A DNA stretch of 58,389 bases from Candidatus Doudnabacteria bacterium (lineage in GTDB: Bacteria; Patescibacteriota; Doudnabacteria; UBA920): NCBI GenBank assembly GCA_963788395.1, contig CAWBGV010000022.1, positions 1 through 58,389 on the forward strand, in the 5' to 3' direction. Under the pieces are notes generated by a model that searched no databases, had not been told where the DNA came from, and saw nothing but the letters and a program-made list of their open reading frames with translations. A program made the position numbers and the translations under genes. Shown piece after piece: positions 11,267 to 48,881 of the stretch. Position 1 is the first letter of the stretch. Every line of letters begins with the position of its first letter.

Positions 11267-11373
11267 GAATTGTTACATTCCGCCTTGACTGATTTTTGTT
11301 TCATCTTAACCGACTGTGGCGGATCCGTTACCTTACTGGCAACGGACAGGAATAATATCCTGAGTTTAGGTTG

Positions 11374-11466: not shown

Positions 11467-11484
11467 TAACCTAGTCTCAAAATA

Positions 11485-15701: not shown

Positions 15702-15704
15702 ACG

Positions 15705-15905
15705 GGGAAGTAAGTAGTGGGTAGGCTACGGAAAATTATACTAACTGTACTAATTATTCTCCGCCAAAGGCGAATCTGCCTCTGGCATGATAAGTACCCT
15801 AAATAATGTCCAAAACCCAATTTGGGAATTTCTAAATTAGACATTTGTGCTTATTTAGAATAATTTATCCCCCGCCTACCAATTACTCACTACCAACTAC
15901 CCCCC
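15705..15905. repeat. intergenic low-complexity inverted repeat with embedded CCGCC/GGCG palindrome between convergent genes
   Basis: AAGTAAGTAGTGGGTAGG ... CCTACCAATTACTCACTACC; CCGCCAAAGGCGAATCTGCCTCTGGCA inside. Confidence 0.55.
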
Positions 15906-15907
15906 GC

Positions 15908-27684: not shown

Positions 27685-27744
27685 TCGAATCTACGAATAA
27701 CTGCGAATCTACAAATCTAGTGTACCCCATTCGTAGATTCGATT
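27685..27744 (+). repeat. 60-bp GAATCTAC-based palindromic repeat, copy 1
   Basis: 58/60 identical to the reverse complement of 33945-34004. Confidence 0.9.
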
Positions 27745-31598: not shown

Positions 31599-33944
31599 AT
31601 GAACTATTTGGAAAACCTGCGCAACGCGGTTAATGCCTATGTAGACGCAAAGGAGCGGCGGAAGTTGGAATACAAGGTCAGGAATATTGTAACTGAGCGG
31701 AAGGAATTGGAGCACTGGACCGATACAGAGCTGCAGCTGGCCACGCAAGCGTTCCGGCAAGACTTACAAAAAGGCAAGCGCCTGGACACGTTGACTGTCC
31801 CGGCTTTTGCGGTAGTCAACGAAGTAGCGCGCCGGCTGCTCGGACAGTCGCCATACGAGGTCCAGATCTTAGGCGGCTTGGTTATTCATAGTGGTAAAGT
31901 GGCCGAAATGAAAGCGGGCGAAGGTAAAACCTTAACCGAAACCATGCCGGTTTATTTAAACGCGCTGGCCGGTTACGGAGTGCACTTAATTACAACCAAC
32001 GACTATTTAGCCGAACGCGATGCCAAGTGGATGGGGAAGCTGTACAATTTTTTGGGTTTGACGGTCGGGTACGTGACCTCGACCATGAAAAATGAGGAGC
32101 GCCGCAAAGCCTATGCCTGCGATATTACTTACGTGACCAACCAAGAAATTGGCTTCGACTTTTTGCGGGATAACTTAGTTTATTCCCGGAGCGACCGAGT
32201 CTTGCGGCCTGAGCACCCGCTGTTTTTTGGCATTGTTGATGAAATTGACAGCATCCTCATAGATGAATCGCGCACCCCGCTGATTATTGCCGAGCCGACC
32301 AAAGACGAACGTAATTTGTATGATCAGTTTACCGAAGTCGCTTCGCTGCTTGAGGAAAATAAAGATTACACTGTTGATTACAAAAATAAATACGTGGCCA
32401 TGACCAACGAAGGGTTGGATCGGGTGGAGCAAATCCTGGGCGCGCCGCTCTTTTCCAAAGACAACCCGATGTACGTATTTTACTTAGACGTCTGTTTAAA
32501 AGCCAAAGTTGTTTTTGAACGCGACCGGGATTATATTATTACCAAAGGCGGCGTAGAAATTGTAGATGAATTTACCGGCCGGGTCTTGCCGGGCCGGCGA
32601 TTTACCGACGGCGTCCACCAGGCAATTGAGGCCAAGGAAAAGGTTAAAGTTAAAGGTTCGGACCGGACCGCGGCTACGATCACTTTCCAGAATTTTTTCC
32701 CCATCTACGAAAAACTTTCCGGCATGAGCGGTACGGTTATGGACGCCCGTAAAGAATTTAATGAAGTCTATAATTTAGACGTCATTCAAATTCCGACCAA
32801 CAAACCCGTAATTCGTGTAGACCATAACGATTTGTTTTTCAAAACCCAAAAAGGCAAATTTGAGGGAATGGTCAAGAAAATTCACCAGATAACCAAACAA
32901 GGGCAGCCCTTATTGATTGGAGCGCGCAATGTTGAAATTGCTCACACGATCGCCGAAATTTTAGAAAAAGAAAATCTGCCGTTCCAATTGTTGACCGCTT
33001 CCGATAACCGGGCCGAAGCCGAAAAGATCGCTAAAGCCGGCCAGGAAGGCTTAATTACAGTCGCAACCAACATGGCCGGCCGGGGGACCGATATCTTGCT
33101 CGGCCAAGGCGTGGAGGACTTGGGGGGCCTGTTTGTACTGGGCACCGAACGGCACGAATCGCGGCGGATTGACGGCCAGCTTATTGGCCGGGCCGGCCGG
33201 CAGGGAGAGCCGGGAGAATCTCAGTTTCTGATCTCGATGGAAGACGAAATTATTCAGTTGTTTGCCAGCGAGAAAATAATCGATGTCATGGAAGAGTACG
33301 ATATTCCCGAAGATGAGTATATTTCCGGTAAAGGCTTGGATGAGGCTTTTAAGCGGGCCCAGGATTTTATCGAGAGTAAAAATTATGACAGCCGCATTTA
33401 TTTGTATAAATACGATCGCGTAGTTAATTATCAGCGCGACCAGTTGTATAAATTGCGCGACCGCTTGCTGGGCAACGAACCGGCGTTCCGGCAATTTTTG
33501 CAGGATACGACTGGCGAGGTGGTGCGGTCGATTTTTGAACTTAAAGATTCCAATATCATCAAGAGTGAATTAAAGACTATCTTCAATATTGATGTGACCG
33601 AAAAAGAAATGGCCGAAGTGCTCCGGGCAAAAAATCCGGAGTACCACCAAGAGGTTGTCAGACACTTTATAGATTACCTCACCAAAGCCGAGCAGCCCTT
33701 GGTGCAGCGACCGGAAATCTACGATGCTGCTCAGAAGCTGATTTTAGAAATAATTGATAATAATTGGGGAACGCATTTGGAATTAATGGATATTTTAAAA
33801 GAAGAGGCCAACTTGTTTTCTTACGCTTCGGTAGACCCGCTTATAGATTTTATCAAAGACGGTAATGAGCTGTTTCAACACATGGGCACCGAAATTCAGC
33901 GGCAATTTTTGAAGGCGATATTTTTCTATATAAGCCAACAATAG
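31599..33944 (+). CDS. secA: preprotein translocase SecA paralog (short, lacks C-terminal zinc-binding domain)
   Basis: EMKAGEGKT, DEIDSILIDESRTPLII, ATNMAGRGTDI, ESRRIDGQLIGRAGRQG. Start at MNYLEN (781 aa). Confidence 0.9.
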   Translation: MNYLENLRNAVNAYVDAKERRKLEYKVRNIVTERKELEHWTDTELQLATQAFRQDLQKGKRLDTLTVPAFAVVNEVARRLLGQSPYEVQILGGLVIHSGKVAEMKAGEGKTLTETMPVYLNALAGYGVHLITTNDYLAERDAKWMGKLYNFLGLTVGYVTSTMKNEERRKAYACDITYVTNQEIGFDFLRDNLVYSRSDRVLRPEHPLFFGIVDEIDSILIDESRTPLIIAEPTKDERNLYDQFTEVASLLEENKDYTVDYKNKYVAMTNEGLDRVEQILGAPLFSKDNPMYVFYLDVCLKAKVVFERDRDYIITKGGVEIVDEFTGRVLPGRRFTDGVHQAIEAKEKVKVKGSDRTAATITFQNFFPIYEKLSGMSGTVMDARKEFNEVYNLDVIQIPTNKPVIRVDHNDLFFKTQKGKFEGMVKKIHQITKQGQPLLIGARNVEIAHTIAEILEKENLPFQLLTASDNRAEAEKIAKAGQEGLITVATNMAGRGTDILLGQGVEDLGGLFVLGTERHESRRIDGQLIGRAGRQGEPGESQFLISMEDEIIQLFASEKIIDVMEEYDIPEDEYISGKGLDEAFKRAQDFIESKNYDSRIYLYKYDRVVNYQRDQLYKLRDRLLGNEPAFRQFLQDTTGEVVRSIFELKDSNIIKSELKTIFNIDVTEKEMAEVLRAKNPEYHQEVVRHFIDYLTKAEQPLVQRPEIYDAAQKLILEIIDNNWGTHLELMDILKEEANLFSYASVDPLIDFIKDGNELFQHMGTEIQRQFLKAIFFYISQQ

Positions 33945-34004
33945 AATTGAATCTACGAATGGGGTAGACTAGATTTGTAGATTCGCAGTTATTCGTAGAT
34001 TCGA
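33945..34004 (-). repeat. 60-bp GAATCTAC-based palindromic repeat, copy 2 (inverted)
   Basis: Reverse complement of 27685-27744 with 2 mismatches. Confidence 0.9.
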
Positions 34005-34047
34005 TTCTATTGTTTGCTTCTCCTTGCGTTTCTGCTATAATTCCCTC

Positions 34048-34352: not shown

Positions 34353-35833
34353 ATGGAATTAAAGTATTTGGAATTAACTGAACTTCGCGAGCTGCTGGAC
34401 GGCAAGAAAATTTCGTCAGTCGAACTGGCGGAGGATATTTTATCGCGCATTGGGGAGCAAGACCAAAAGTATAATAGCTATTTGACCGTGACCACAGACG
34501 CGGCGCTGGCCCGGCGCGGGAGGCCGATGCTATGATCAGCACTCCCGGCGAGAATGCTTTTTTGTGCGGCATCCCTTACGCGGCCAAAGATTTGTTTTGC
34601 ACCCAAGGTATCCGGACTACTGCATCGAGCAAGATTTTAGATCATTACTTGCCGCCGTACGATTCGACGGTTATTTCTAAGCTTAAGGAACAAAAATCGG
34701 TTTTGCTGGGCAAAACCAATTTGGACGAATTTGCGCACGGTTCATCTACGGAAACTTCGGCGTACGGGCCCTCCCACAATCCGTGGGATGTTACCAGAAT
34801 TCCCGGAGGTTCTTCCGGCGGTTGGACCGCCGCGGTCGGTGCCGGCTTGGCCCCGTGGGCTTTAGCCACGGAAACCGGTGGCAGTATTCGCCAGCCGGCA
34901 TCGCTGTGCGGGCTCAGCGGCTGGAAGCCTACGTATGGCCGCGTGAGTCGCTATGGCGTTATTTCGATGGCTTCCTCTCTGGACAGTATGGGCGCGGTGG
35001 CGCACTCGGTAAAAGACTTAGCCCACGTGGCCGAAATCATGTCTGGCCGTGACCTAAAAGATGCTACTACCGGCCATGGCGAAGTACCGCCTTATGTTCA
35101 ACATCTATCTGCCAGCGTCAAAGGTTTAAGAATTGGCATTCCAAAAGAATATTTTATAGAAGGGTTGCAGGATGGTATTCGACAAGGCGTGATGGATGCA
35201 GTACGGGAGTTGGAAAAAGCCGGAGCTATTATTACTGAGGTCAGTTTGCCCAATACTAAATTTGGATCGTTAGTCTACGCTATTGTCTGCCCGAGCGAAG
35301 TTAGTTCTAATTTAATGCGCTATGACGGGATTCGCTATGGCCACTCTACCAAAAATGCCAACAATCTTTTAGAAGTTTACGAAAAATCCCGCGCCGAAGG
35401 TTTTGGCAACGAAGCCAAAAGGAGAATATTGACCGGCACCTACGTTTTGTCCGCCGGCTATTACGACGCTTACTACAAAAAAGCGCAAAAGGTGCGCGGG
35501 CTGATTATCCGCGAATTCGAAGACGTCTTTAAACAAGTCGACGTCTTAATTTGCCCGTCCACGCCCAGCGTTGCTCCCAAAATCGGCAAAGCCAAAGAAG
35601 ATCCGCTGTTTGGTTACATTTCCGACCAGCTCAACATTCCTTCCTCGCTCGCTGGCCTTCCTGCCGTATCTATTCCCTGCGGATTCATCAAGCCGGAAGA
35701 CGGCGAAGCTACCGTAGATATGCCGGTCGGTATGCAGATTATCGGCAAGCAGTGGGATGAACAGACGGTATTTAATGCGGGTTACGCGTTTCAGCAATTG
35801 ACAGATTGGCACAAGAAGCACCCGGTGGAATAA
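34353..35833 (+). CDS. gatA: Asp/Glu-tRNA amidotransferase subunit A (frameshift near 34520)
   Basis: GKTNLDEFAHGSS, PGGSSGG, ETGGSIRQPA, YDGIRYG, AGYYDAYY. Confidence 0.95.
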
Positions 35834-35930
35834 ATCTCAAAACACAAAAAGTCAAAAGCTCAAATAAATTCCAAAAATTCAAAGATAAAACAATGGGTTT
35901 AAAATAACATTCTGAACTTAATAAAAGAAC
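35834..35930. repeat. left A-rich short-period flank of the four-helix-bundle cassette
   Basis: ..CAAATAAATTCCAAAAATTCAAA..; imperfect inverted partner at 36293-36371. Confidence 0.6.
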
Positions 35931-35933
35931 GTG

Positions 35934-36292
35934 ATGCCTGATGAAAAGAAAAAACCTTATGATCTTGAAGAACGGACGTACCAATTTGCTTTAGATGTGG
36001 CTTTATATGTAAGAAGCTTCCAAAAACTATAATGAATATAGAGTGCATTAAGCAAGTTATCAGATCTTCGGGCTCGCCGGGAAGTAATTATATTGAGGCG
36101 AATGAGTCATTGGGGAAGAAAGATTTTCAGATGAAGATTAGAATATTGTCGAAAGGAATCAAAAGAGAGTGCTTACTGGTTGCGGCTGTTGGTCAATACA
36201 AAACGATGCAAATGTTTAAAGCGGAAGGTGTCAGTTTAATGAACAAAGCGGTTGAGTTAAAAAAGATGTTTTCCTCGATACTGAATAAGTAA
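35934..36292 (+). CDS. four helix bundle protein (23S rRNA-IVP / TIGR02436-like); several indels
   Basis: MPDEKKKPYDLEERTYQFALDV..QVIRSSGSPGSNYIEANESLGKKDF..; the KESKESAYWLRLL motif is present in an alternate frame. Confidence 0.88.
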
Positions 36293-36371
36293 TTTGTTAT
36301 TGACAATCCCGTCATTAATTGATAATTGTTGATTTATTTGGGATTTGTATATTGAGCATTGATATTGTATT
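36293..36371. repeat. right T-rich short-period flank of the four-helix-bundle cassette
   Basis: ..TTGATTTATTTGGGATTTGTATATTGAGCATTG.. Confidence 0.6.
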
Positions 36372-37881
36372 ATGAAAGTATTTCCGATTTCAACCGAATA
36401 CCAGCCTGTGATTGGCTTTGAAATCCACGTCGAGCTTGCTACAAAGAGCAAAATGTTTTCTTCGGCGGTGAATAATCCGGACGAGAAGGTGCCGAACACG
36501 AATATTGACGAAGTCGTGACGGCCCAGCCCGGGACTTTGCCGGTGGCCAATAAAGAAGCTATTCGTTTGGCGGCTTTGGTGGGGTTGGCTTTGAATTGCG
36601 AGATAGATGAGTTTTCCAAGTTTGACCGCAAGCATTATTTTTATCCCGACCTGCCCAAAGGCTATCAAATTTCCCAATACGACCAACCGATATCTAAAAA
36701 CGGTTTTCTCGATGTCAATATTGGCGGAAAAATAAAGCGCATCGGCATTACCCGGGCTCACTTCAGAAGAAGATGCCGGCAAAAATGTCCATCCTGAAGG
36801 TTTACCGTATTCGTTGGTTGATTATAATCGTGCCGGTTGCGCACTCCTAGAAATTGTAACTGAGCCGGATATTGAAAGCGGCGAAGAAGCGCGGTTATTT
36901 TTGCAGGAGTTGCGTAACATTATCCGCTACTTAGGCGCTTCGGATTGCGATATGGAAAAGGGGACTATGCGCTGCGAACCGAATATTTCGGTGCGCAAGC
37001 CCGGCGAGACTTCGCTGCCAAAATATAAAGTCGAAGTCAAAAACATCAATTCTTTTAAATTCGCGGAGTCGGCCATTAATTACGAATTGGCCCGGCAGAC
37101 GGAAATCCTTAAAGAAGATAAAATTCCAAAACAGGTGACTATGGGCTGGAATGAAAAGTTGGGAGAGACCGTAGAGCAGCGGTCTAAGGAAGAAGCCAAC
37201 GATTACCGCTATTTTCCGGAACCGGATTTACCGATTTTGCAGTTCAGTCAAGAATATTTAGACAAGCTTAGTTCTGAGTTACCGGAATTGCCGGCGCAAA
37301 AACGGGTGCGGTTTAAAGATGAATTTGGTTTGCCGGATGCCGACGTGGAAAATTTATTGAACTGGAAAGAATTGGCCTATTATTTTGAAGATGTGGTCAG
37401 TGAACTGCAGGAATGGGAAGAGCAAGACCCGTTACGTACGGTTAAAAGCGGGGCATTAATTAAGCCCGCGGCCAACTGGTGCTTGCAAGATTTTTCGGCG
37501 CTGCTCAACGCACAGGGGATAAACCCTATGGACAGCCACGTCACGCCGGAAAACATGGCGGAGTTGATTACGTTAGTCTACGAAAGCAAAATTTCCGGCA
37601 GCGCCGCCAAGCAGGTTTTTAAAGTTATGTTTGAAAAAGGCGGCGAGCCGCTTTCGATTGTGCAAGATTTAGGTCTGGCGCAGACTTCCGACGAAGGCGC
37701 AATTTTAGAAGCTATTAATAAGGTGATAGCGTCTAATCATAAAGCGGTGGAAGATTTTAGGAGCGGCCACGAAAAATCGTTTGGCTTCTTAGTCGGACAA
37801 GCGATGCGGGAACTCAAAGGTAAAGGCAATCCGCAAGTGATTAATAAGTTATTGAGGGATAAGCTGATGAAAAGCAAATAA
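36372..37881 (+). CDS. gatB: Asp/Glu-tRNA amidotransferase subunit B (+1 frameshift near 36763)
   Basis: [48 protein letters not shown]. Confidence 0.96.
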
Positions 37882-37926
37882 AAAAAAGAACGCCGTCGAT
37901 TCCAAAATATGGAACCGCGGCGTTTT
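37881..37926. terminator. hairpin terminator between convergent gatB and PEP-CTERM genes
   Basis: AACGCCG..TTCCA-AAATA-TGGAA..CGGCGTT flanked by A/T tracts. Confidence 0.6.
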
Positions 37927-37930
37927 GTAG

Positions 37931-38521
37931 TTAGACGAGAGGCCGACGAACAAAAGCGAGCCCCGCAAACCCTATTATCAATAAAATTGGGGTCGACGGT
38001 TCTGGGACTTGTGGGTTTTCGACCGTCACTGTAATGGGGTCGAATTCCGCCGGCTGGCCTGTTCCCTCGAGGGTGGAATAGTCTTGGCTTGTGACCAGGC
38101 TGTGGGAGACGGCCTGAAAGGTTAGTGACTGGCCGACGTCCAACGCATACAATGCGAGCACTGGACCGAGTGTGGGGCCGTTATGGAAGCCCCCCGTGGA
38201 ACTAATGTAGGTCCCAGCTGGCCCACTGACCAACTCGAGGTCTGGCTCGAACGGGTTACTGGGATCGGCCGGGAATTCACCTAACCCATAGTGCGGGTCA
38301 GATGGGTTATCCGGGAAAATAGCGTAATCCCCAATGACCAACCATCCCCAGGTTTGGCCCGGAACATAGGTTCCGTCCGCGTTCGTGTTCACAATGTTGT
38401 ACGTGTACAAAAACGTACCGTCATTTTGCGAAACCACGGTCGCAGTAGCGGTAAGCGGCGAGGCCTGCACAGTTAATGTCACTGTGAGGAAAAACAGCAC
38501 AACAGTTATATTCAAACGCAC
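37931..38521 (-). CDS. PEP-CTERM protein-sorting domain protein
   Basis: Signal peptide, then C-terminal VPEPST + hydrophobic helix + RR. Confidence 0.92.
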   Translation of the reverse strand: MRLNITVVLFFLTVTLTVQASPLTATATVVSQNDGTFLYTYNIVNTNADGTYVPGQTWGWLVIGDYAIFPDNPSDPHYGLGEFPADPSNPFEPDLELVSGPAGTYISSTGGFHNGPTLGPVLALYALDVGQSLTFQAVSHSLVTSQDYSTLEGTGQPAEFDPITVTVENPQVPEPSTPILLIIGFAGLAFVRRPLV

Positions 38522-38706
38522 GTGTGCACTCCTTAAATTTGTACTTCAAAAACTTTGGCTTAAGTCTAACATAAAAAGGCAAGTGCGTCAAGTATATAAG
38601 TCTTGTACAATGGAACATGATATCTCCTTACAAACAAAAAAAGGAACCTTGCAAAAAAACTGCAAGGTTCCAAGAGTCTTAGAGCTTCCCAAAAGAGCCA
38701 AGGATC

Positions 38707-39378
38707 TTAAGTGTCCAAGAACTCTTCCTCGCGGACAGCGGGGAAACGATAGCCGCCACGCCAGCCACCGGCCAGCCGACGGAGGTCGAACTTGCGCTTC
38801 CTGTCCCAGCGGTTGAGCACCGGTGCACACTGGTTGCCGTAGCCATCGAGGCAGACCGAATCCTCATCCAGTAGAACGAGCGGGTTTCCTACCTGCCGTT
38901 GGGCAAAGGTCTTGCCGATACCAGTGCCGTCGTCCACGTCGCCAGGTCGGTCGCCATTCGCCCTTATCCGCTGCCGCATTTTTTCAGTGGAGCCAGGGCC
39001 GGAATAAAGCACGATATGCCGACGCACCTTGCGTTTCAGTTTGGACTTGCCCGCCGTTATATTCCGATGGACGCCGCCCTTGAAATCGCAAGCCGTGATT
39101 CGATCCGGAAACGAAACGGCCGGGTCGAGTTCAATCCACCCCAAGTCTTCAACTTCTTCCTTGAGCGTGGATTCGGGCTGTTCTTCGACAGCTTCCACTT
39201 CTTCCGGCTTCGGGGGCCGAGCAGCGATTGAAAGCGCGGCAATCTCTGGAGCTAAACTCTCCAGCCGAGCCACGTCATCATCATCACCACCGGTAGCGAG
39301 TATGGCATCAATAACCGCATTTACAATCACGGTCATCTTTCCCCACCCACGTCGAAAATCACTCTTTTTTTGAGCCAT
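38707..39378 (-). CDS. hypothetical protein
   Basis: 223-aa ORF, acidic linker, C-terminal W....F.L......W.G.YRF.AVR motif. Confidence 0.7.
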   Translation of the reverse strand: MAQKKSDFRRGWGKMTVIVNAVIDAILATGGDDDDVARLESLAPEIAALSIAARPPKPEEVEAVEEQPESTLKEEVEDLGWIELDPAVSFPDRITACDFKGGVHRNITAGKSKLKRKVRRHIVLYSGPGSTEKMRQRIRANGDRPGDVDDGTGIGKTFAQRQVGNPLVLLDEDSVCLDGYGNQCAPVLNRWDRKRKFDLRRLAGGWRGGYRFPAVREEEFLDT

Positions 39379-39643
39379 AAATCCTCCTCGGTCTACTTTC
39401 TGCTTTTTTAGGAGCCTAAAGCCTACCGATGTTTTTCGGTTGTCATACGTGATACGTCACGCGCGGACAGGCCTCAACAATTGAGACGAGCAGTTTAACT
39501 ACAAAAAAACAGCTTTTGTAACCAAACTGCCCATATCAAAATTTAACTTTTAATTATACCTGATTTTCTTACTCCTGTCAAGCTGTATGTCGCAAATAAA
39601 AAAAACCGACTTGCCGCAGATGCGACTAATCGGTTATTTGTGG

Positions 39644-39832
39644 TTAGGTTCTTTTATGGTCAGGTTTTTCAGGAGCGACCAAAGGGCCATAATCTATACC
39701 ATAGGTAGCTGTTTCTTCGACGTTCGGCTCAATAGTTCGTAACGCAGGTGCAAGAGGTTTGATTTCGCGAATGCGAGGGGTCGCATTAGCCGCGCCGTAG
39801 CCTAGTTGTTCCAAAGTCTTTAAGTTTTTCAT
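39644..39832 (-). CDS. small hypothetical protein (possibly extends to 40009 through one TAG)
   Basis: 62-aa ORF; in frame with an SD-preceded ATG at 40009. Confidence 0.4.
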   Translation of the reverse strand: MKNLKTLEQLGYGAANATPRIREIKPLAPALRTIEPNVEETATYGIDYGPLVAPEKPDHKRT

Positions 39833-40035
39833 GCCAAAAAAGAGTCCTTTACTCGCTCTGGCGTTGCAATCGCAAGGCCGCCTTGGTCTTCTCGAGGCTC
39901 CCTGGGTAGGTTTACTGTCCCGGATAGTAACTGTGACTTGCTCAGCTGCCGTGCTTGCAGCCTCCTGGCTGGCAGCCAGAATCTATTTCAATTCGTTGGA
40001 ATTTGGCATTACGCCTCCTTACCAGGAAGTATAGC

Positions 40036-40995
40036 CTATTCCAAAAACTTTACAACCAACTCGGTTGCTTTTTTGCCATCAGGCATCCAGTGGATTTCGG
40101 CGTTGCGTTTCCACCAGGTCAGTTGCCGTTTAGCGTAATGTTTGATTGCAAACGAGAGCTGCTGCAGCATTTGCTTCTCGCTCAATTTTTTTTGCAAGAA
40201 CAGCGCCAGATATTTATATTCTAACCCAAAAGCTTCCAGCCGCTTCCATGACAGTCCCTGGCGATGCAGTCTGCGGACCTCATCAATCATGCCGCTTTTT
40301 ATTCTTTGACTAAGGCGCAGGTCAATTTTTTTATAGAGCGCATCTTGGGGCGGCTGAATCCCCAGCCACAAAACATCATAGCCAGGCTGCGTTTTCATTT
40401 TTGGAAGCGGCCGGCCGGTGGTCAAAACTATTTCCAGAGACCGGATTAAGCGCCGCTTATTGTGCCAGTCAATCACCGCCGCGCGGTCAGGGTCGAGTTG
40501 CTTCAACTTTTCATACAGCTGTTCAATGTCCAATTTTTCTAATTTTCTGCGCAGCGCAGGATTGGCTTTAACTTCGGGGATACTTTGATTATAAATAACC
40601 GCGTCTATCCACAAACCCGTGCCGCCGCAAAGAATAGGCAGTTTGCCGCGGCCGACTATCTCGCTGATAGCCTTTTGTGCCGCCTTTTGGAACAAGGCCA
40701 CGGAATATTGTTTTTTTGGATCAACAAAATCGATACAATGATGCGCCACGCCCCGATAATAAAAATAACCCAAGCGACCCGAAAAATCGCGGCCGCGATT
40801 TTTTTGGCCCACAGGTTTTTTCCACTGGCCGGGGATTTTGCCGGTGCCTAAATTCAGGCCGCGATAGACCTGCCGGCTGTCGCAGGAAATAATCTCGCCG
40901 TTATATTTTTTGGCTAAAGCAACGGCCAACTCGGATTTGCCCGAAGCCGTGGGTCCGACTATAGCAATAACTTTGGGAGTTTCGTCGGAGCTCAT
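40036..40995 (-). CDS. miaA: tRNA dimethylallyltransferase MiaA
   Basis: GPTASGKS, IISCDSRQVY, GGTGLW, RRLIRSLE, YAKRQLTWW. Confidence 0.96.
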   Translation of the reverse strand: MSSDETPKVIAIVGPTASGKSELAVALAKKYNGEIISCDSRQVYRGLNLGTGKIPGQWKKPVGQKNRGRDFSGRLGYFYYRGVAHHCIDFVDPKKQYSVALFQKAAQKAISEIVGRGKLPILCGGTGLWIDAVIYNQSIPEVKANPALRRKLEKLDIEQLYEKLKQLDPDRAAVIDWHNKRRLIRSLEIVLTTGRPLPKMKTQPGYDVLWLGIQPPQDALYKKIDLRLSQRIKSGMIDEVRRLHRQGLSWKRLEAFGLEYKYLALFLQKKLSEKQMLQQLSFAIKHYAKRQLTWWKRNAEIHWMPDGKKATELVVKFLE

Positions 40996-41135
40996 GGTTT
41001 TTTTACAATAAGTTTGCGTCCGGCAAATTTGCCGCCGCGCAACAGGGCTTTGCCGTGCATGGGCATACGCGGCCTTTTTTTGAGTTCACGTTTTTTGGCT
41101 TTGGTCGGGAATTCCCCAATAATATGCTTCTTCAT
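40992..41135 (-). CDS. 47-aa basic small protein, ATGA-coupled to miaA (below ORF-track cutoff)
   Basis: Manual translation MKKHIIGEFPTKAKKRELKKRPRMPMHGKALLRGGKFAGRKLIVKKP*; the stop overlaps the miaA start. Confidence 0.65.
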   Translation of the reverse strand: MKKHIIGEFPTKAKKRELKKRPRMPMHGKALLRGGKFAGRKLIVKKP

Positions 41136-41194
41136 TCGTTGATTCGTATCTTAGGCTCCTATATAATTATAGTATACCATTAAACCAAAAATCT

Positions 41195-41725
41195 ATGAGT
41201 AAAAAATTTGCGATTGTTATTATCATTCTTATCATTATTATCGGCCTGATATTCTTTTATTACCATAAACAGGCTAACGCCCCTGCTCCGAACGAGCCTG
41301 CCGGAAAGTCTGCTGCTGCGGTTATGGTTACTCTGGCCGCGCCCACTCCAACTCCCGCGACCAGCACTGCGGCGGTCAGTCTAACCCCAACCATAAGCAA
41401 TACTACTCATTACAGCAGCGGCAATGAAGGCGAAGACGCCGGTCCCAACATTCAAGTCGTAGAAATGGATTACAGTAATTCCACCTTCAGCCCGGCCACC
41501 TTACAAATCAACAAAGGGGATTACGTATTTTTTCGCAACAAAGGCAGCGGGACGTTTTTACCCGCGCTGGCTCAGGCGCCCGCCGGCGTAACTTTCAACC
41601 CAAATCAAGCTACTGACCAGCCCGGCGGAGAATACAAGTTCGAATTTAATCAAGCGGGCGTTTATAAGGTTATAAACGGTCTTGAGCCGTCGGGAGCCGT
41701 TGGCACTGTAGTTGTGAGCCAATAA
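41195..41725 (+). CDS. membrane-anchored cupredoxin-like protein
   Basis: TM, P/T linker, FSPATLQINKGDYVFFRN..F.F...GVY..; no canonical Cu ligands. Confidence 0.75.
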   Translation: MSKKFAIVIIILIIIIGLIFFYYHKQANAPAPNEPAGKSAAAVMVTLAAPTPTPATSTAAVSLTPTISNTTHYSSGNEGEDAGPNIQVVEMDYSNSTFSPATLQINKGDYVFFRNKGSGTFLPALAQAPAGVTFNPNQATDQPGGEYKFEFNQAGVYKVINGLEPSGAVGTVVVSQ

Positions 41726-41792
41726 AGCGCCGGGACGGGTATAATACCCAAATTGTTTTGCCGCAATGCGAAATTCTTAGTATAATAAAGAC

Positions 41793-42629
41793 ATGGATAT
41801 TTCCTGGAAGACTTATGGCCACGCGGCAGTAAAAAATATTCTGGCCAAGCAACTAGCGGCTGGCCAGTTAGCGCACGCTTATTTATTCTTGGGTCCTTCG
41901 GGAATAGGAAAAAGCCTGTTGGCTCGCGAATTAGCTCAAAGGATTCTGCAAACTGCTGATTTGCAGCATCATCTGGATTTTTTGCCTCTCAGCGGCGAGG
42001 GGGAAATTACGATGGAAACTGTCCAGGATTTTATGGCCCAGGTGCGCTTTAAGCCGCTGCGCGCTTCGCACCGTGTCGCGTTTATGGATCGGGCGCACCG
42101 GCTGAATACCCAAAGCAGTAACGCGCTGCTGAAGACTTTGGAAGAACCGAGTCCGGCTACTATCCTGATACTGAGTGCCGACCAGCCGTTGTTGCCGACT
42201 ATTATGTCGCGCTGCCAAGTTTTACACTTCAGTAAATTTTCGGTCAATCAATTACGAAGTTTTGCGGCCGAGCAGAACCTTTCCGTTTCGGAGGATCTTT
42301 TGGCTCTGAGCCGGGGTTCGCCGGGCCGGCTGCTTGGCCTCGCGCAGGATTCGGCAGTGGCGCGGGTAGAGCAGGACCAGTTGCAAAACTATCGGCAACT
42401 AAAGCAAACCAGCCGGGCCGGCCGCTTACTGGCCATTGCCGGGTTGGCCGAACAGGAACCGGAAGATTTACGCGAATTGTTTCAGAACTGGCAAGCCTAC
42501 GAAGCTCTGCAGCTGCGCGGCCAGCCGCGAGGCTATCTGTGTCTCCAGGCGCTGGCTCAGGCGCTGCAGGATTTGCAAACCAATAAAAACAAAAAATTAA
42601 TTCTGCAAGGTCTTTTGTTACGTATTTAA
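41793..42629 (+). CDS. holB: DNA polymerase III subunit delta'
   Basis: HAYLFLGPSGIGKS, NALLKTLEEP, LPTIMSRC. Confidence 0.9.
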   Translation: MDISWKTYGHAAVKNILAKQLAAGQLAHAYLFLGPSGIGKSLLARELAQRILQTADLQHHLDFLPLSGEGEITMETVQDFMAQVRFKPLRASHRVAFMDRAHRLNTQSSNALLKTLEEPSPATILILSADQPLLPTIMSRCQVLHFSKFSVNQLRSFAAEQNLSVSEDLLALSRGSPGRLLGLAQDSAVARVEQDQLQNYRQLKQTSRAGRLLAIAGLAEQEPEDLRELFQNWQAYEALQLRGQPRGYLCLQALAQALQDLQTNKNKKLILQGLLLRI

Positions 42630-42641
42630 CCTTCATGACCC

Positions 42642-43700
42642 ATGAAAAAAACAATTCTGGTTTTGGCAACCGTCCTGCTCTCGGCTTCCTGCAGTCTTTC
42701 CCAAGCTGCCGTGTATGGAGGTATTGCCAAAAGCGTCAATGGAGGTGTGGATTGGCAGTTTAGTAACGCCTTAATTAATCCGCCGAATAGCAGCTTAAAT
42801 GTGCTCAATGTTTCCAAACTGGCATTTGATCCATCTAATAACCAAACGGTCTTTGCGGCCGGTTATAACGGCGGTTTGTATAAGTCTACTGATTCTGCGG
42901 CGCATTGGGGTCAAATCCTGTCGAACATTTTAGTCTATGACTTTGCGGTTGATCCGGCCAATTCCAATATTATTTACGCGGCCGGCTTCTATAATTCGCA
43001 GGGGAAAGTGGTAAAGACCACCGACGGCGGCGCAACCTGGCAGGATGTCTATAACGAAGCCAGCGCTAACAATCTGGTGCGATCTATTGCTATAAATCCG
43101 GCCAACGTTAATCAGTTGGTGATTGGGACAGCTTTGGGAACTATTGTGGAAAGTTCCGACGCCGGCACCACCTGGCAGCTGCTGAAAGATTTTAATAACC
43201 AAGTCAACCGCGTGTTATGGCAGAGTGGCAATATATACGTGCTGTTGGCTAATCAGGGTTTGCAAATGAGCAGCGATGGCGGCGCAACCTTCCAAAATAT
43301 TGCCCAAGCGATTACCCGAGGTACTTATATAAGTGATGTGTTTAATACCAACAAGACCACCGTGGCAACATTTCATCAGGTCTATGTAGATTTAATCGAC
43401 CCAAATTTAATCTATCTGACGACTTCCGGCGGCGTGGTCAAAACCGTTGACGGCGGCAAAACCTGGACGTTTGTAACTTTACCGGTTAAACCGGGCGCCA
43501 GCGACCCGCACGCGATTGCGATTTCCAACGAGAGCAGTAATATAGTTGTGACCTCGGTGGACGCTACGGTATATCGCAGTACAAACGGGGGTTCTAGCTG
43601 GCAAACCCAAAAGGTTGCCACAAATGGATATATCAACTATATTTTAATAGACCCGCAGCTGCCCCAAATTATGTACGCGGGAGTTTTTAACCAGCAATAG
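42642..43700 (+). CDS. lipoprotein with BNR/Asp-box repeats (YCF48/VPS10-like beta-propeller)
   Basis: Lipobox LSASC; repeated S/T-x-D-G-G-x-T-W motifs. Confidence 0.85.
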   Translation: MKKTILVLATVLLSASCSLSQAAVYGGIAKSVNGGVDWQFSNALINPPNSSLNVLNVSKLAFDPSNNQTVFAAGYNGGLYKSTDSAAHWGQILSNILVYDFAVDPANSNIIYAAGFYNSQGKVVKTTDGGATWQDVYNEASANNLVRSIAINPANVNQLVIGTALGTIVESSDAGTTWQLLKDFNNQVNRVLWQSGNIYVLLANQGLQMSSDGGATFQNIAQAITRGTYISDVFNTNKTTVATFHQVYVDLIDPNLIYLTTSGGVVKTVDGGKTWTFVTLPVKPGASDPHAIAISNESSNIVVTSVDATVYRSTNGGSSWQTQKVATNGYINYILIDPQLPQIMYAGVFNQQ

Positions 43701-43730
43701 CTCCCATAGGACCTATTGGATATATATTCT

Positions 43731-44288
43731 ATGATTGACCAAATTATCAATTCTCACAAAGAAGATTTTGCTAAAGTGATGGATCACTTTAAGTTTGAAC
43801 TTGGCAGTGTGCGAACCGGGCGCGCCAACCCCGCTCTGCTGGCGACGGTTCAAGTGGAATCGTATGGCGCGAAAATGCCGCTGGAGCACGTAGCTTCGGT
43901 CACCGTCAGTGACGCTAAAACTTTGACGATTAGCCCTTGGGACAAAGGCCAGTTGCAGGCTATTGAAAAGGGGATTCAAATGGCTAACCTGGGTTTTAAT
44001 CCTTCCAACGACGGGAATGTTATCCGTATCACTTTACCCGCACTGAACGAGGAGCGCCGCAAAGAAATGGTTAAGTTGTTGGGCCAAATTGCTGAGAAAG
44101 CTAAAATTGGCATCAGAAATGTCCGCGAAGATGTTATAAAGGAAATGAAGCGGGCGGAAGGCGACGGAAAAATTTCGAAAGATGATTTAACCCACGGGCA
44201 ACGGAAGTTGCAGGAATCTATAGATAAATATAATGAGGAGATTAAGGGCATGGCGGATGCTAAGGAAAAAGACGTAATGACGGTATAA
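43731..44288 (+). CDS. frr: ribosome recycling factor
   Basis: RTGRANP, YGAKMPL, NPSNDG, LNEERRKE, IRNVRED. Confidence 0.97.
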   Translation: MIDQIINSHKEDFAKVMDHFKFELGSVRTGRANPALLATVQVESYGAKMPLEHVASVTVSDAKTLTISPWDKGQLQAIEKGIQMANLGFNPSNDGNVIRITLPALNEERRKEMVKLLGQIAEKAKIGIRNVREDVIKEMKRAEGDGKISKDDLTHGQRKLQESIDKYNEEIKGMADAKEKDVMTV

Positions 44289-44440
44289 AATATCAAATCC
44301 CAAAAAAACAAGCACCAAATAAATTTCAAATAACAATAATCAAGGCAGGTTTGATATTTTACTTTTTTTGAAAATTGCGATTTATTTGATGTTTTGAATT
44401 TTGTTTACTGTGATTTTAAACTGTATTTTTAAGAATCAAA
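44289..44440. repeat. A-rich/T-rich imperfect inverted intergenic element resembling the four-helix-bundle flanks without a gene
   Basis: CAAATAAATTTCAAA ... GATTTATTTGATGTTTTG. Confidence 0.65.
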
Positions 44441-45575
44441 ATGTTCATAACTATTATCACATTTATAATCCTCCTCGCCGTCCTCGTCTTCGTTCATGAA
44501 TTCGGGCATTTTTGGGTGGGCAAGCGGGCGGGAATGAAAATTGAAGAATTTGGATTTGGTTTTCCGCCGCGCATTGCCGGCATTCAAAAAATCAACGCTA
44601 AATGGAAATGGGTCTGGGGGAATAAAAATCCGGCGGCTGATGGCGGGACGACTGATCCAAATAGCACGCTCTACTCCATTAACTGGATTCCTCTGGGCGG
44701 CTTTGTCCGCATCGTCGGCGAAAACAATGAGCACGAGAACGACCCCCGCAGTTTTATCAACCAGCCGTTTTGGGCGCGGTTTTGGACCTTGGTGGCGGGA
44801 GTATTAATGAACGTGCTGTTGGCGTTTATCTTAATCACCGTCGGTTTTGTGATTGGTTCACCCACGGCCGTAGATAGTCTGAGCAGTGTGCCCGCGCAGG
44901 CCCGTTTTACCGATCCGCATTTGATGGTCTTGGAAGTAGTGCCGGACCAGCCGGCGGCCAAAGCCGGAGTTGAGGAAAACGATACCATAGTTTCGATTGA
45001 CGGCCGCCAGTTTACCAACAGTGACGATGCCAGCAATTATATCCGTTCAAATGCCGGCAAGCAGTTTAATTTTGTTTTGGACCGCGGTGGTCAAGATTTA
45101 GATGTCAAAGTTAATTCGTTGGCCAACCCGGGTCCGCCAGGGCCCCACCGGCATTGGCTTGGCCCTTTTGGGAAATCTTTCGTTTCCCTGGTACTCGGCA
45201 ATTTGGGAAGGCCTAAAAACAACCGGCTATCAGTTAGAGGGAATTTTTGTGGGGCTGTGGCAATTATTCACTACGCGTCAGGGGATCGAGAGTATTAGCG
45301 GTCCGGTAAAAATCGCGCAATTAACGGGCCAGGTGGAACGCTTAGGCTTTAATTATTTATTGGAGTTTGCAGCGGTTATTTCTTTGAATCTAGCGGTACT
45401 GAATATTTTACCCTTCCCGGCGCTCGACGGCGGCCGCATCCTGTTCTTGTTGATTGAGAAAATCCGCCGCAAACGCAATAATCAGAACGTAGAGCAATGG
45501 TTTAACACCGTTGGATTTGTGCTCTTACTGTTGTTGATGGTGGTCGTGACAATTAAAGATATTTTTTATAGATAG
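44441..45575 (+). CDS. rseP: RIP metalloprotease RseP (M50, PDZ); frameshift near 45130
   Basis: VHEFGH, PLGGFV, AGVLMN, PDZ domain, NILPFPALDGGR. Confidence 0.93.
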
Positions 45576-45578
45576 CCT

Positions 45579-46823
45579 ATGAAGCAATTAAATTATTTTT
45601 TAAAGACCAGTAAAACCAAACCCGCGGAAGATGTTTCGATTAATGCACTTTTGCTGGAGCAGGCCGGTTTTGTCCAAAAAGTTATGGCTGGCGTGTATTC
45701 GTATTTACCTTTGGGCTGGCGCGTGCTTTCTAAAATCGAAGCCATCGTGCGTGAAGAAATGAATAACGCCGGGGGCCAGGAAGTGTTTATGCCCTCACTG
45801 CAACCCAAAGAAAATTGGGTCACCACCGGCCGCTGGAGCGGTTTAGATATTTTGTTTAAATTAAAATCTCAGCATGGCTACGAATACGCGCTCGGCCCGA
45901 CGCACGAAGAAATCGTCACGCCTTTGGCGTTGTCGGTAATCAGCTCCTATAAAGATCTGCCGATTGCCGTCTACCAACTCCAAACTAAATTCCGCGATGA
46001 AGCCCGGGCCAAGTCCGGCCTATTGCGCGGCCGCGAATTTCGCATGAAAGATCTGTACAGTTTTCATGCGACTTCCGAGGATTTAGCCAAGTACTATGAG
46101 ACCGTTATGGTCCCGGCCTATCAAAATACTTTCAAGCGTTTGGGTCTTGACGCGATTTATACCGAAGCCTCCGGTGGCACCTTCAGCAAATTTTCTCACG
46201 AATTCCAGGTTGAAATTGAAAATGGCGAAGACACTATTTACATTTGTAAAAAATGCGGCTTGGCCAAAAATAAAGAAATCTTTGAACCTAACATGACTTG
46301 TACTCAGTGCGGCGGTTCTGAATTCAGAGAAGCTAAAGCCTCGGAAGTCGGTAATATTTTTAAGCTGGAAACAAAATATTCTGCCGCTTTTAACCTTAAT
46401 TACACTGACCAAGAAGGCAAACAACAGCCAGTAATTATGGGGTGTTACGGAATCGGCACGACCCGGCTGATGGGTGTGATTGTTGAAAAATTTCATGATG
46501 ATAAAGGCATTATCTGGCCTCAAGCGGTTGCCCCTTTTCAGGTGCATCTTTTAGCCTTAAATATCGAAAAATCAGAAATTAGACAGGCGGCTGAAGGAGT
46601 TTACAATGATTTGCTTGCGGCGGGCGTGGAAGTCCTGTATGATGACAGAGAAGCCAGCGCCGGCGCCAAATTTGCCGACAGTGACTTAATCGGCATCCCG
46701 TTTCGGTTGGTCATCTCGGGAAAAACACTGGAGCAGGGGAGCGTGGAAGTTAAGAAAAGAAGCGAGACAGAATCAAAACTAGTTAAGGCGGACGAATTAG
46801 CCAGTTACTTAAAACAAAATTAA
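45579..46823 (+). CDS. proS: prolyl-tRNA synthetase (short form)
   Basis: GPTHEE, KFRDEARAKSGLLRGREF, GCYGIGTTR, anticodon-binding domain. Confidence 0.97.
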   Translation: MKQLNYFLKTSKTKPAEDVSINALLLEQAGFVQKVMAGVYSYLPLGWRVLSKIEAIVREEMNNAGGQEVFMPSLQPKENWVTTGRWSGLDILFKLKSQHGYEYALGPTHEEIVTPLALSVISSYKDLPIAVYQLQTKFRDEARAKSGLLRGREFRMKDLYSFHATSEDLAKYYETVMVPAYQNTFKRLGLDAIYTEASGGTFSKFSHEFQVEIENGEDTIYICKKCGLAKNKEIFEPNMTCTQCGGSEFREAKASEVGNIFKLETKYSAAFNLNYTDQEGKQQPVIMGCYGIGTTRLMGVIVEKFHDDKGIIWPQAVAPFQVHLLALNIEKSEIRQAAEGVYNDLLAAGVEVLYDDREASAGAKFADSDLIGIPFRLVISGKTLEQGSVEVKKRSETESKLVKADELASYLKQN

Positions 46824-46985
46824 TTTCAAATTTCAAAAAATATAAATCGACACTGCTTGCTGTGATTCCTCCTCGCAATGACAGAGGTAAATGCCGGTCG
46901 TATATATGTCAAACCAATTCCAACCAGCCAATTCCTAAGTTTTGACATCATTTGAAATTTGGAATTGGTTGTTTGGAATTTTTTC
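46824..46985. repeat. intergenic imperfect inverted repeat (TTTCAAA/TTTGAAA) with a CTCGCAATGAC REP-like motif
   Basis: AATTTCAAATTTCAAA ... CCAATTCC ... TTTGAAATTTGGAATTGG. Confidence 0.6.
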
Positions 46986-48038
46986 ATGTTTCGACAACGT
47001 CTATCGCAGATTTTCCAAAGACATTGGTATAGATTTAGGTACCGCCAACACCCTTGTGTACGTTAAAGGCAAGGGGATTGTTATTAATGAACCGTCGGTC
47101 GTGGCGGTTAACCAGCGGACCAAGCAAATTTTAGCTATCGGCAACGAAGCCCGGCGCATGGTCGGGCGCACGCCGCCCCACATCGTCGCCACCCGTCCCT
47201 TGGTGGACGGCGTCATTTCGGATTTTGAAGTTACCGAACAAATGCTGCGTTATTTTATAGACAAAGTCCACGTCCAAACCTATACCTTTCTTCGCCGACC
47301 GCGCGTAGTTATTGGCATTCCCTCCGGAGTCACCGAAGTCGAAAAGCGCGCCGTTCAGGACGCGGCGATGAACGCCGGCGCCAGCCAGGCTTACTTAATC
47401 GAGGAGCCTATGGCGGCCGCTATTGGCGCTCGCTTGACGTCCAAGATGCTGCCGGATCGATGATTGTAGATATTGGCGGCGGCACCGCGGAGATCGCCGT
47501 CATTTCTTTGGGCGGCATAGTTGTTTCCCGGAGCATCCGCGTAGCCGGCGATGAGATGAACGAAAATATTATCCAGTACGCCAGAGAAAATTTTAATTTA
47601 TTAATCGGCGAGCGCACGGCTGAAGACGTTAAAATCCGCGTTGGCAGCGCCTTTGCCTTAGAAGAACCCCTCTACGCCCAAATGCGCGGCCGCGATTTAG
47701 TCACCGGCTTACCTAAAGAAGTCACCATTTCCGACACCCAAGTCCGGGAAGCTTTAATGCATAGCCTCAGGATCATCGTCAACAATATTAAAAATGTGGT
47801 GGAAGAAATCCCTCCCGAAATAATTTCCGATATTATGCACCGCGGGATTGTATTGGCCGGCGGCGGAGCTTTGTTGCGCAATTTAGATAAGCTCGTTCAC
47901 CAATCAACCCAAATGCCAATCATGATCGCCGAAGACCCCTTAACCTGCGTGGTTCGCGGTACCGGCGTAGTCGTGGAAGATTTAGAGATGCTAAAAGAAG
48001 TATTGGTCCTTACAGAGTTTGGAAGAATTCCCAGATAA
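46986..48038 (+). CDS. mreB: rod shape-determining actin-like protein MreB (two single-base indels)
   Basis: [41 protein letters not shown]. Confidence 0.97.
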
Positions 48039-48085
48039 TATAGTACGAATAATACGAATTCGATTCGCGCCATTCGTATTATATT
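48039..48085. repeat. TACGAAT/ATTCGTA short palindromic repeat
   Basis: TACGAATAATACGAATTCGATTCGCGCCATTCGTA; same motif family as the 27685/33945 repeats. Confidence 0.7.
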
Positions 48086-48881
48086 ATGCGCTTTATCTAT
48101 ACTAAAACGTTTGCAGCACTGGCGGCCGCGATAGTCATTGTGGCGCTTTTGGCAATTTTACAAATTAAAGGTTTGTTGTCGCCGGTGCGCACCGCTTTTT
48201 CGGAAGTACCGCGACCGGCCATATCTTTTGTCAGAAGTTTAAGCACTCCAGTGGTTGGTTTTTTTCCACTATTTACCGCCTGCATCAGATTACGCAGGAA
48301 AACGCGGTTTTAAGCACTCAAATTTTACAGCTTCAGCAGCAGTTAGCCGATTTTAATCAGTCGGAAACTGAAAACGAGGCCTTGCGCAATGAACTGGGGT
48401 TTGTGACCTCGAGCCAGCTTAATTTACAGCCCTGTTCAGTCCTGGCCGAAAATCCGGAAAATGTCAGTGACACGCTGGTCTTAGATTGCGGCACTTCCCA
48501 AGGCGTTGCCGTGGGGCAGGCGCTCATCTCGCAAGGATATTTAGTCGGAAAAATCATCAGCGTTCCGGCGGCAGCAGTACCGCGCTTTTGATTACCGATT
48601 CTAATTTTTTAGCCGACGCGCTGATTAGCCAAACTTCGGCCACCGGCATTATTCGCGGTTCGTTCGGCAGCGGCCTGATTCTGGATCGTTTGTCCCAGGA
48701 CGACGAAGTTCAAAAAGGCTGGCTGGTCGTGACGGCCGGAATTAACCAGCAAATTCCCAAGAACATTCTGATTGGCCAAGTCGGCGATATTATCTCCAAC
48801 CCCAACAGTTTATTCAAACAAGCCACGGTCATTAGTCCAATCGATTTTTCCAATTTGCAATTCACTTTTGTGGTTAAATGA
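48086..48881 (+). CDS. mreC: rod shape-determining protein MreC (frameshifted)
   Basis: TM, ENEALRNEL coiled coil, LDCGTSQGV, LVGKI, VVTAG, IGQV, FKQATV. Confidence 0.9.

Follow-up and report, generated by a model that had tools for sequence, protein, structure and literature searches.

The stretch of DNA considered here (the window) is 58,389 nucleotides long and comes from a Candidatus Doudnabacteria bacterium (contig CAWBGV010000022.1, C22 below, of a 1.29-Mb, 41-contig genome assembly that is 77% complete); the element of chief interest lies in the 538-nucleotide spacer between gatA and gatB (35834-36371), in which a profile search finds a match to the four-helix-bundle protein family PF05635. 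On balance, this insert is best regarded as a decaying copy of a hairpin cassette of the type found as intervening sequences (IVSs) in ribosomal RNA, in which a gene of this family lies between two inverted arrays. Comparison with other copies shows a gene-plus-arms unit that sits in the sense orientation at operon junctions, changes site, sheds its gene when internal sequence is deleted and gives rise to gene-less hairpins in multiple copies. The explanation of the whole that we lean towards is a heritable, site-hopping unit made up of a PF05635/TIGR02436 gene and two inverted arrays of short words with a period of 7 or 9 nucleotides. The family itself is very common and structures have been solved, and to our knowledge no function is known for it. 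The setting throughout the window is one of compact, co-directional housekeeping genes, and the gene names used below (secA, gatC, gatA, gatB, frr, rseP, proS and mreB) are backed by Pfam. At the gatA-gatB junction the features, all on the plus strand, are as follows.

34532-35833, plus strand: gatA (amidase), the upstream neighbour (Pfam Amidase, E 3.7e-128); its TAA stop directly abuts the left arm.
35834-35933, plus strand: left arm region, of A-rich words of about 8-9 nucleotides (TCAAAA / CAAATAAAT / TCCAAAAAT), best paired at about 35843-35885.
35934-36292, plus strand: four-helix-bundle gene of PF05635/TIGR02436, type 2, 2RLD-like, broken (three-frame reading and profile match).
36293-36371, plus strand: right arm region, the T-rich complement (TTGATTTATTTGGGATTTG...), ending 5 nucleotides short of the gatB ATG.
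36372-37881, plus strand: gatB, the downstream neighbour (GatB_N and GatB_Yqey over two open reading frames, with one frameshift at about 36765-36813).

A preliminary description of this stretch, made from the letters alone, had reported a small four-helix-bundle gene interrupting gatAB, and such a gene is indeed present, although its frame is broken: a three-frame translation can follow it only by way of at least three frameshifts, and an intact open reading frame (ORF) of some 115-130 amino acids is lacking. When read through in this way it matches the TIGR02436 hidden Markov model (HMM) at 45.6 bits, over the cut-off of 24 bits, and PF05635 at 30.9 bits, slightly below the cut-off of 33.8 bits. 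An intact gene at the same junction in a relative (genome G028) shares 51% identity with it, as against 36-37% for the same-type copies that its own genome carries on contigs C9 and C18. Rfam finds no rRNA in the window, the host of this cassette being the gatA-gatB junction and not an rRNA helix.

The second part of that description, that the A-rich left and T-rich right flanks are complementary, holds as well. The flank words it quoted lie at 35861-35875 and 36333-36347, and the duplex between 35834-35933 and 36293-36371 has a calculated energy of -35.2 kcal/mol, whereas dinucleotide shuffling of the two flanks gives -21.2 +/- 3.7 (z -3.8); only 1 of 500 shuffles is as good, so that the flanks do pair better than shuffled AT-rich DNA. 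They include an inverted repeat of 87% identity (35855-35869 / 36332-36346), and the arm pairing is present in the minimum free energy fold. Folding of the whole spacer 35834-36371 gives no signal (z -0.15); since the loop dominates the folding energy, this test was replaced by the flank-against-flank duplex. The words of the window copy are degenerate, with a period of about 8-9 nucleotides, as compared with the tandem heptamers of rRNA IVSs.

How far the broken frame can be trusted depends on the assembly. In some 9.6 kb of conserved genes in the window, a single frameshift divides each of gatB, rseP and mreB into two ORFs (at 36765-36813, about 45100-45300 and about 47460, respectively); the genes of relatives are intact, gatB for instance being one open frame of roughly 470-580 amino acids in nearly all of 60 relatives. 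Either the assembly contains indel errors or the genome has real lesions; the single splits are probably assembly indels, which limits pseudogene calls in this genome. At this rate only about 0.1 frameshifts would be expected in 359 nucleotides, as against the three or more found, and the gene between gatA and gatB is probably a real pseudogene, with some contribution of assembly error possible.

Five further matches to PF05635 were found by profile search of the contigs, making six in this genome. Four of these, on contigs C31, C35, C18 and C9, each lie between two co-directional housekeeping genes, within a long inverted repeat made up of short tandem words that are specific to the locus; the arm duplex of C31 has a z of -2.0, and those of the other three have values from -7.4 to -8.4. 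The C31 and C9 genes are intact, that on C35 has one in-frame TAA and that on C18 three frameshifts. The two intact proteins score past the PF05635 cut-off (125 bits for C31, 38 bits for C9), and by sequence matching alone C31 corresponds to the structure 2GSC (E 1.6e-18) and C9 to 2RLD (E 5.9e-7), so that the cassette protein is predicted to be homologous to these pentameric four-helix bundles, as also to Avd, the accessory protein of diversity-generating retroelements (DGRs). The remaining match, at C2:11836-11994, is to a 195-amino-acid Avd-like or PF05635-like protein (23.6 bits) with an N-terminal extension rich in Arg, Gly and Asn; it has neither flanking inverted arrays nor an adjacent reverse transcriptase (RT), and its architecture is unlike that of the cassette genes.

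The wider comparison drew on a panel of about 100 tiny-genome bacteria. Among 95 genomes of the same family, 63 contain PF05635, with 0-14 copies per genome of about 1 Mb. Genus g20 (26 genomes) is nearly without it, 4 of the 26 having a single match, while sister genera have 5-14 copies. Two sets of cassettes were assembled, the first (n=37) from the 30 best-scoring loci of the family together with five copies from this genome and two gatA-gatB cassettes of relatives, and the second (n=27) from type-2 relatives of the C9 protein. Taking an alignment z > 4 as the criterion, arms are present in 31/37 of the first set and 26/27 of the second, or 57/64 overall. In the first set 27 of 35 cassettes have a period of 7 nucleotides; in type 2 the period is either 7 or 9 (7 in 12/27). 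Of 34 cassettes at least 29 have an upstream neighbour that runs the same way, and of 31 cassettes 29 have such a neighbour downstream. The left arm occupies the 5-170 nucleotides between the upstream stop and the cassette ATG; the units fill the space from upstream stop codon to downstream start codon, at junctions that otherwise measure 0-30 nucleotides. In the first set 25/36 left arms have a stop in each of the three sense-strand frames, compared with 7/36 on the antisense strand and 37% of shuffles, and the right arm mirrors this; inward three-frame stops as a general rule had to be dropped, the type-2 cassettes giving 11 against 11.

These results bear on the most deflationary explanation, namely that low-complexity AT-rich spacers and a spurious ORF in an error-prone assembly have combined by chance to look like a cassette. 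The frameshifts in gatB, rseP and mreB would fit such an account, as would a second spacer of the window (44289-44440, discussed below) that is no better than its shuffles. It is nonetheless already contradicted by the HMM matches, by the flank duplex (z -3.8) and by recurrence of the same design in 57/64 cassettes, most of them from other, high-quality genomes, and we give it hardly any credence.

That arms and gene form one unit is indicated by the way in which they vary together. Proteins at least 65% identical to that of C9 have arms of CTAATT type despite different flanking genes, while more distant type-2 proteins have arm words TTTCCAAT, TTTCAAAT or TTCTAAT. Among cassettes without a common tblastx match in their flanks, similarity of the arms in 6-mers climbs with protein identity (rho 0.32 for type 2, 0.25 for type 1), the Jaccard index of the arms being 0.15 for pairs at least 70% identical and 0.02-0.05 for distant pairs; the pairs are not independent, and p-values here are indicative only. 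Because arm words track the protein lineage across sites, arms and gene appear to be inherited together; the same co-variation argues against arms that are host hairpins from before the insertion, and against the idea that arm words are copied from local sequence at the insertion site.

The most direct evidence for movement and loss comes from comparing the same junctions across relatives, gatA-gatB in 27 and frr-rseP in 29. At gatA-gatB, 11/27 relatives have gaps of only 8-55 nucleotides, several of which consist of one short-period array. A full type-1 cassette is present in G035 and an intact type-2 gene, the closest relative of the window copy, in G028, while G072 has a type-2 cassette directly upstream of gatB. 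In G017, which belongs to the genus of G035, the allele is of 137 nucleotides and has the same arm words together with the first 23 and last 33 or so nucleotides of the ORF. At frr-rseP, full type-2 cassettes with CTAATT/GACCTAA words are found in G002 and G015, gene-less hairpins with the words of G002/G015 in G008 and G010 (a start-codon remnant being kept in G008), gene-less hairpins with other words in six genomes, single arrays in four, and essentially no spacer in twelve, including the same-genus G001. Full and short alleles were compared by local alignment of each end, as global MAFFT alignment misplaced the gaps; the short allele of G017 lines up at either end with the full cassette of G035, and that of G008 with the full cassette of G002; ORF remnants are kept in both short alleles, which must therefore have arisen by internal deletion. 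This origin of the gene-less form was met with in relatives, the window's own hairpins lying outside that comparison. Full, gene-less and absent alleles are thus all to be found at both junctions, and far from being stably inherited at one site the gene shows extensive presence/absence variation.

Other inserts share these junctions. At gatA-gatB they include small membrane ORFs, a GIY-YIG gene in an inverted repeat of its own, and a 1.4-kb insert. The GIY-YIG nuclease gene (94 amino acids, Pfam E 4.3e-16) occurs at loci L023 and L029 (in G015 and G033), within the repeat GTCATTCCGA...GGAATCTCA / TGAGATCC...GGATGAC, and may represent a second type of cassette with a small gene in a hairpin; judged by eye, its flanks are resembled by the middle of the proS-mreB spacer of the window (46850-46905, minus strand, GTGATTCCTCCTCGCAATGACAGAGG) and by C19:345-420. 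The 1.4-kb insert (L034, in G029) contains what appears by eye to be a small MazF/PemK-like ORF, a small membrane ORF that is present twice and a second copy of the gatB 5' end, and looks like an insertion into gatB itself with target duplication. Single 7-nucleotide arrays that are not inverted are seen at L018, L022, L024, L031, L033 and L036 (gatA-gatB) and at L078, L080 and L082 (frr-rseP), with the downstream start codon in register with the array, as in GTAAGAT TTAGGAT TTAAGAT GTAAGAT CTATGGA; such arrays may be what is left of cassettes that lost one arm, or may have grown by slippage from the start region.

The preliminary description had further suggested that gene-less derivatives spread like miniature inverted-repeat transposable elements (MITEs). 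Five short-period inverted arrays that it listed (at 11374, 15705, 27685, 33945 and 48039) are all real hairpins, with fold z values from -4.3 to -12.6.

11367-11473: gene-less hairpin of CACGGAT heptamer words; fold z -12.6; family copies on C8, C20 and C29 (blastn).
15700-15930: nested hairpins between convergent genes, a gene-less unit of CTAATT / CCCTAAATAATGTC type inside an outer stem of GTAAGTAG type; fold z -5.8.
27685-27744: hairpin copy in the opposite orientation to 33932-34019, between divergent clpC-like (minus strand) and recX-like (plus strand) genes; fold z -4.3.
33932-34019: gene-less hairpin of GAATCTACGAAT words, filling the secA-gatC junction; fold z -7.8.
48035-48087: gene-less hairpin of ATACGAAT words; fold z -4.8.

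Several of these tie in with gene-bearing copies or with one another. The inner unit at 15700-15930 uses the words of the C9 cassette, and the locus has 20-53 nucleotides in common with C9:8187, C31:29616, C19:3384 and C30:72032. The hairpin at 27685-27744 is the reverse complement of that at 33932-34019 (97% over 60 nucleotides), and a third copy lies at C31:74280. These three and the 11374 family thus provide multiple near-identical copies with terminal inverted repeats, as would be looked for in MITEs, and together with the allelic series and the remnants of ORF ends they bear out the suggestion of gene-less derivatives. At 33932-34019 the stem takes in the TAG stop of secA and ends 4 nucleotides before the gatC start, while at 48035-48087 the stop region of mreB pairs with bases just ahead of the next ATG.

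Over the genome as a whole a census gives about 90 inverted repeats that have a short loop and arms of 20 nucleotides or more, some 72 of which fall outside the known tRNA-end and GGTCGC repeat families; many of the 72 are built of recurrent words of 7-9 nucleotides (CACGGAT, AATAGCGA, TACGAA, AAAGTT, GAGGGG, CTAATT, TTTCAAAT). Three word families are common to gene-bearing cassettes and gene-less hairpins, namely GAGGGG/TAGATAG (C35), CTAATT (C9) and TTTCAAAT (C18). A mirror-repeat control for this census was dropped, as the count of mirror repeats (178, against 253 inverted) was inflated by low-complexity words. At C36:5900-16400, a co-directional run of 10.5 kb contains eight short-period hairpins with different words (among them CATGAAG, GAGGGG, TACGAA, TTTCAAAT and AATAGCGA), or about one per 1-2 kb. 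An inverted repeat at C35:1443-2496, of 254 nucleotides, 96% identical and with a 546-nucleotide loop, is longer than any cassette arm and has no short words, and is probably a different kind of element.

It was for two other spacers, between frr and rseP and between proS and mreB, that the preliminary description had proposed empty cassettes with complementary flank pairs, and these are the weakest examples.

44289-44440: frr-rseP spacer of 152 nucleotides, A-rich and then T-rich words; possible decayed gene-less relic.
46916-46980: hairpin within the proS-mreB spacer (46824-46985), of TTCCAA / TTTCAAAT words followed by T6; fold z -4.6 and -5.4.

The frr-rseP spacer cannot be upheld as a complementary flank pair: neither its fold (z 0.02) nor the duplex of its halves (z +0.34) goes beyond shuffles, its only real feature being a switch in composition from A-rich to T-rich. 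It is an insertion relative to the same-genus G001, in which the stop of frr and the inferred start of rseP overlap (ATGA), and comparison of that empty site with the filled one in this genome reveals no target-site duplication. Lying at a junction that holds cassettes and relics in relatives, it is probably a decayed relic, too degenerate for complementarity to be detected. For proS-mreB the claim survives in part: the halves of 46824-46985 do not pair as flanks (duplex z about 0), but within the spacer there is a strong local hairpin, with an AT-rich stem of about 29 bp. At this junction an A-word/T-word hairpin is found in most relatives, frequently followed by a T-run, and a four-helix-bundle gene in none of the relatives sampled; the position is conserved and the hairpin terminator-like, and it may be a domesticated element or a native terminator-like hairpin.

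This last case lends itself to a more general objection, that all such structures are native host hairpins of AT-rich genomes (terminator-like, or concerned with processing or stabilisation of mRNA), that the gene is a passenger in their loops, and that the "empty cassettes" never were cassettes. Beyond the wide occurrence of a gene-free proS-mreB hairpin among relatives, the T6 behind 46916-46980 and the fact that 15 of the 72 or so hairpins of this genome lie between convergent genes are as would be expected on that account. Intrinsic (rho-independent) terminators have a T-run behind a GC-rich stem of 5-20 bp, whereas a T-run is missing from most of the stems here, only 46916-46980 having one (T6) among the arrays of the window; a consensus terminator scan flags none of the arrays, though as it requires a GC-rich stem and small loop it is blind to long AT-rich stems. 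More telling are the movement of arm words with the protein lineage between sites, the ORF ends retained in short alleles, and the rarity of arrays in genomes that lack the gene. When the three junctions were scored automatically for arrays or inverted repeats, they were positive in 2/18 cases in genomes with no copy of PF05635 and in 26/48 in genomes with two or more (Fisher p 0.0018); counted by genome the figures are 2/10 and 18/23 (Spearman rho 0.56), and the median junction length is 14 nucleotides in the former and 158 in the latter. Taken as a general explanation, native hairpins therefore seem unlikely to us.

If the site-hopping unit is indeed the right explanation, the way in which it is tolerated might be envisaged as follows. 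The cassette would be co-transcribed with the host operon, and its arms would pair in the transcript to give a stem of 20-45 bp, the base of which would bring the upstream stop beside the downstream start, in the manner of the pairing at 33932-34019 and 48035-48087. By analogy with rRNA IVSs that carry the same gene family, the stem might be cut by RNase III (the genome has an rnc gene, at C30:52807-53199), or the flanking cistrons might at least be brought together; in either case an RNA stem would make the insert tolerable within essential operons. The protein would be a nucleic-acid-binding factor serving the element's own spread or maintenance, and the gene-less hairpins its non-autonomous, MITE-like descendants. 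An RNA stem that loops the gene out of the mRNA, as the preliminary description had supposed, is plausible on the strength of this analogy.

There are, nevertheless, several points that weigh against it. A stem maintained as RNA might be expected to favour G-U pairs on the sense strand, yet among mismatches in 64 arm pairs such a bias is absent, with 38 transitions of G-U type and 42 of the antisense type (20:25 and 18:17 in the two sets), and it is transversions that dominate, which is not the usual trace of selection on a sense-strand RNA stem; the test of G-U against A-C is of low power, because variant words probably pair out of register, as the excess of transversions suggests. The gene-less copies are not confined to one orientation, and some lie between genes that diverge or converge. 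In or beside the cassettes there is no transposase, integrase or RT, and no target-site duplication has been seen; matches to RVT_1 are confined to contigs C27 and C28, which hold none of the six PF05635 loci, so that the remark in the preliminary description that no transposase or RT is linked to the cassette stands. The association with copy number ignores phylogeny and general genome streamlining. Finally, the three frameshifts of the window copy could in part be assembly errors, given that gatB, rseP and mreB are also split.

Some of these points fit rather better with an element acting at the level of DNA, the arms being either hairpin or cruciform DNA or arrays of binding sites for the four-helix-bundle pentamer, recombination or transposition being carried out with host enzymes, and the RNA stem being incidental. 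This would account for the even balance of transitions (38 against 42) and for the copies of one hairpin in both orientations, one of them in a divergent promoter region; co-variation of arm words with protein lineage is what would be expected if the protein reads the words, and the nested hairpins at 15700-15930 suggest insertion into a hairpin that was already there. We know of no nuclease or recombinase domain in PF05635, however, and gene-bearing cassettes are nearly always co-oriented with both neighbours, though that could merely reflect a need for expression. The related rRNA IVSs, moreover, are processed as RNA (PMC4990558). A purely DNA-level element seems to us a possibility to be taken seriously but a fairly improbable one.

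The known systems that come closest to the site-hopping unit are the rRNA IVSs. That of Coxiella burnetii, in helix 45 of 23S rRNA, has a terminal inverted-repeat stem of 28 bp and tandem heptamers upstream of an S23p ORF that is decaying, and RNase III cleaves it at the first repeat; the ORF-bearing 23S IVSs of Leptospira, of Brucella and of the Xanthomonas type of S23p belong here too (PMC4990558). They share with the cassettes the same protein family in the loop, a terminal inverted-repeat stem round the ORF, an ORF that is often decaying, and the lack of a transposase; tandem heptamers just upstream of the ORF they share with many of the cassettes, those of the first set above all, the window copy having its degenerate words of about 8-9 nucleotides. 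They differ in sitting in an rRNA helix, whereas the cassettes sit at protein-coding operon junctions (gatA-gatB and many others), have arms that are word arrays throughout, and reach 14 copies per 1-Mb genome, with many gene-less copies besides. Excision by RNase III is proven for the IVSs, while for the cassettes it is proposed by analogy.

Avd belongs to a homologous four-helix-bundle fold family (bAvd, PDB 4DWL; PF22296; NF033474) (PMC10053308), but the resemblance does not extend to genetic context, since in DGRs an RT and a template/variable repeat adjoin, as they do next to none of the cassettes, the RT genes being on C27/C28. The C31 copy matches bAvd at 24.7 bits and DivGenRetAVD at 17.8 bits, both weak scores that fall far below the Avd cut-offs.

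MITEs and the repetitive extragenic palindromic (REP) sequences and REPINs are mobilised in trans, for example by RAYT/IS200-IS605 Y1 transposases. The gene-less hairpins are like them in being short, intergenic, multi-copy inverted-repeat hairpins found in both orientations, in deriving from or depending on a gene-bearing partner, and in co-occurring with that partner at the level of the genome; the differences are that the partner in the cassettes encodes no known transposase, that the arms are lineage-specific tandem words, and that no target-site duplication is seen.

A last comparison is with published heptamer direct repeats, such as the intergenic TAACTGA repeats of Beggiatoaceae, cyanobacteria and Bacteroidetes (PMC4679880); tandem heptamers are reported to outnumber all other periodic repeats between genes, with "no clear clue" as to function (PMC6344855). 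Like cassette arms they have a period of 7, run toward a downstream start, overlap the upstream stop and carry stops in three frames (as in the first set, 25/36 against 7/36). They are, however, direct repeats without a partner gene or complementary arm, whereas the arrays described here are inverted pairs round a PF05635 gene, or remnants of such pairs.

These comparisons allow a further, more speculative scheme to be framed, which we think an unlikely one. PF05635 proteins would be word-specific trans-acting factors of a class of hairpin elements without a transposase, each lineage having its own words of 7 or 9 nucleotides and the gene-less hairpins being served in trans. Avd assists self-primed cDNA synthesis in DGRs, and spread might in the same vein take place through a stem-loop excised by RNase III and copied into DNA by an unlinked RT with an Avd-like cofactor. 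If true, this word-specific scheme would explain much of the excess of tandem heptamers in prokaryotic intergenic DNA.

A search of the open literature (subscription journals being outside its reach) yielded no account of PF05635 genes in inverted arrays outside rRNA, and as far as can be told the cassette family is real, dynamic and undescribed outside that setting. For the orphan family PF05635/TIGR02436 this means that its gene is carried as cargo, together with inverted word arrays, in a unit that can be recognised as such and that inserts into essential operons of genomes with little DNA to spare; a possible function thereby becomes open to test. A link is drawn between the classical rRNA IVSs and cassettes that stand free in protein-coding operons, which points to a shared origin of the two, and a concrete origin is offered for the abundant short-period intergenic arrays and hairpins that have gone unexplained in the literature (PMC6344855). 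For annotation, the implication is that spacers of this kind should not be called terminators or small RNAs before their possible cassette ancestry has been checked, while the contrast between genus g20 and its sister genera provides a natural setting in which the cost or benefit of carrying cassettes may be assessed.

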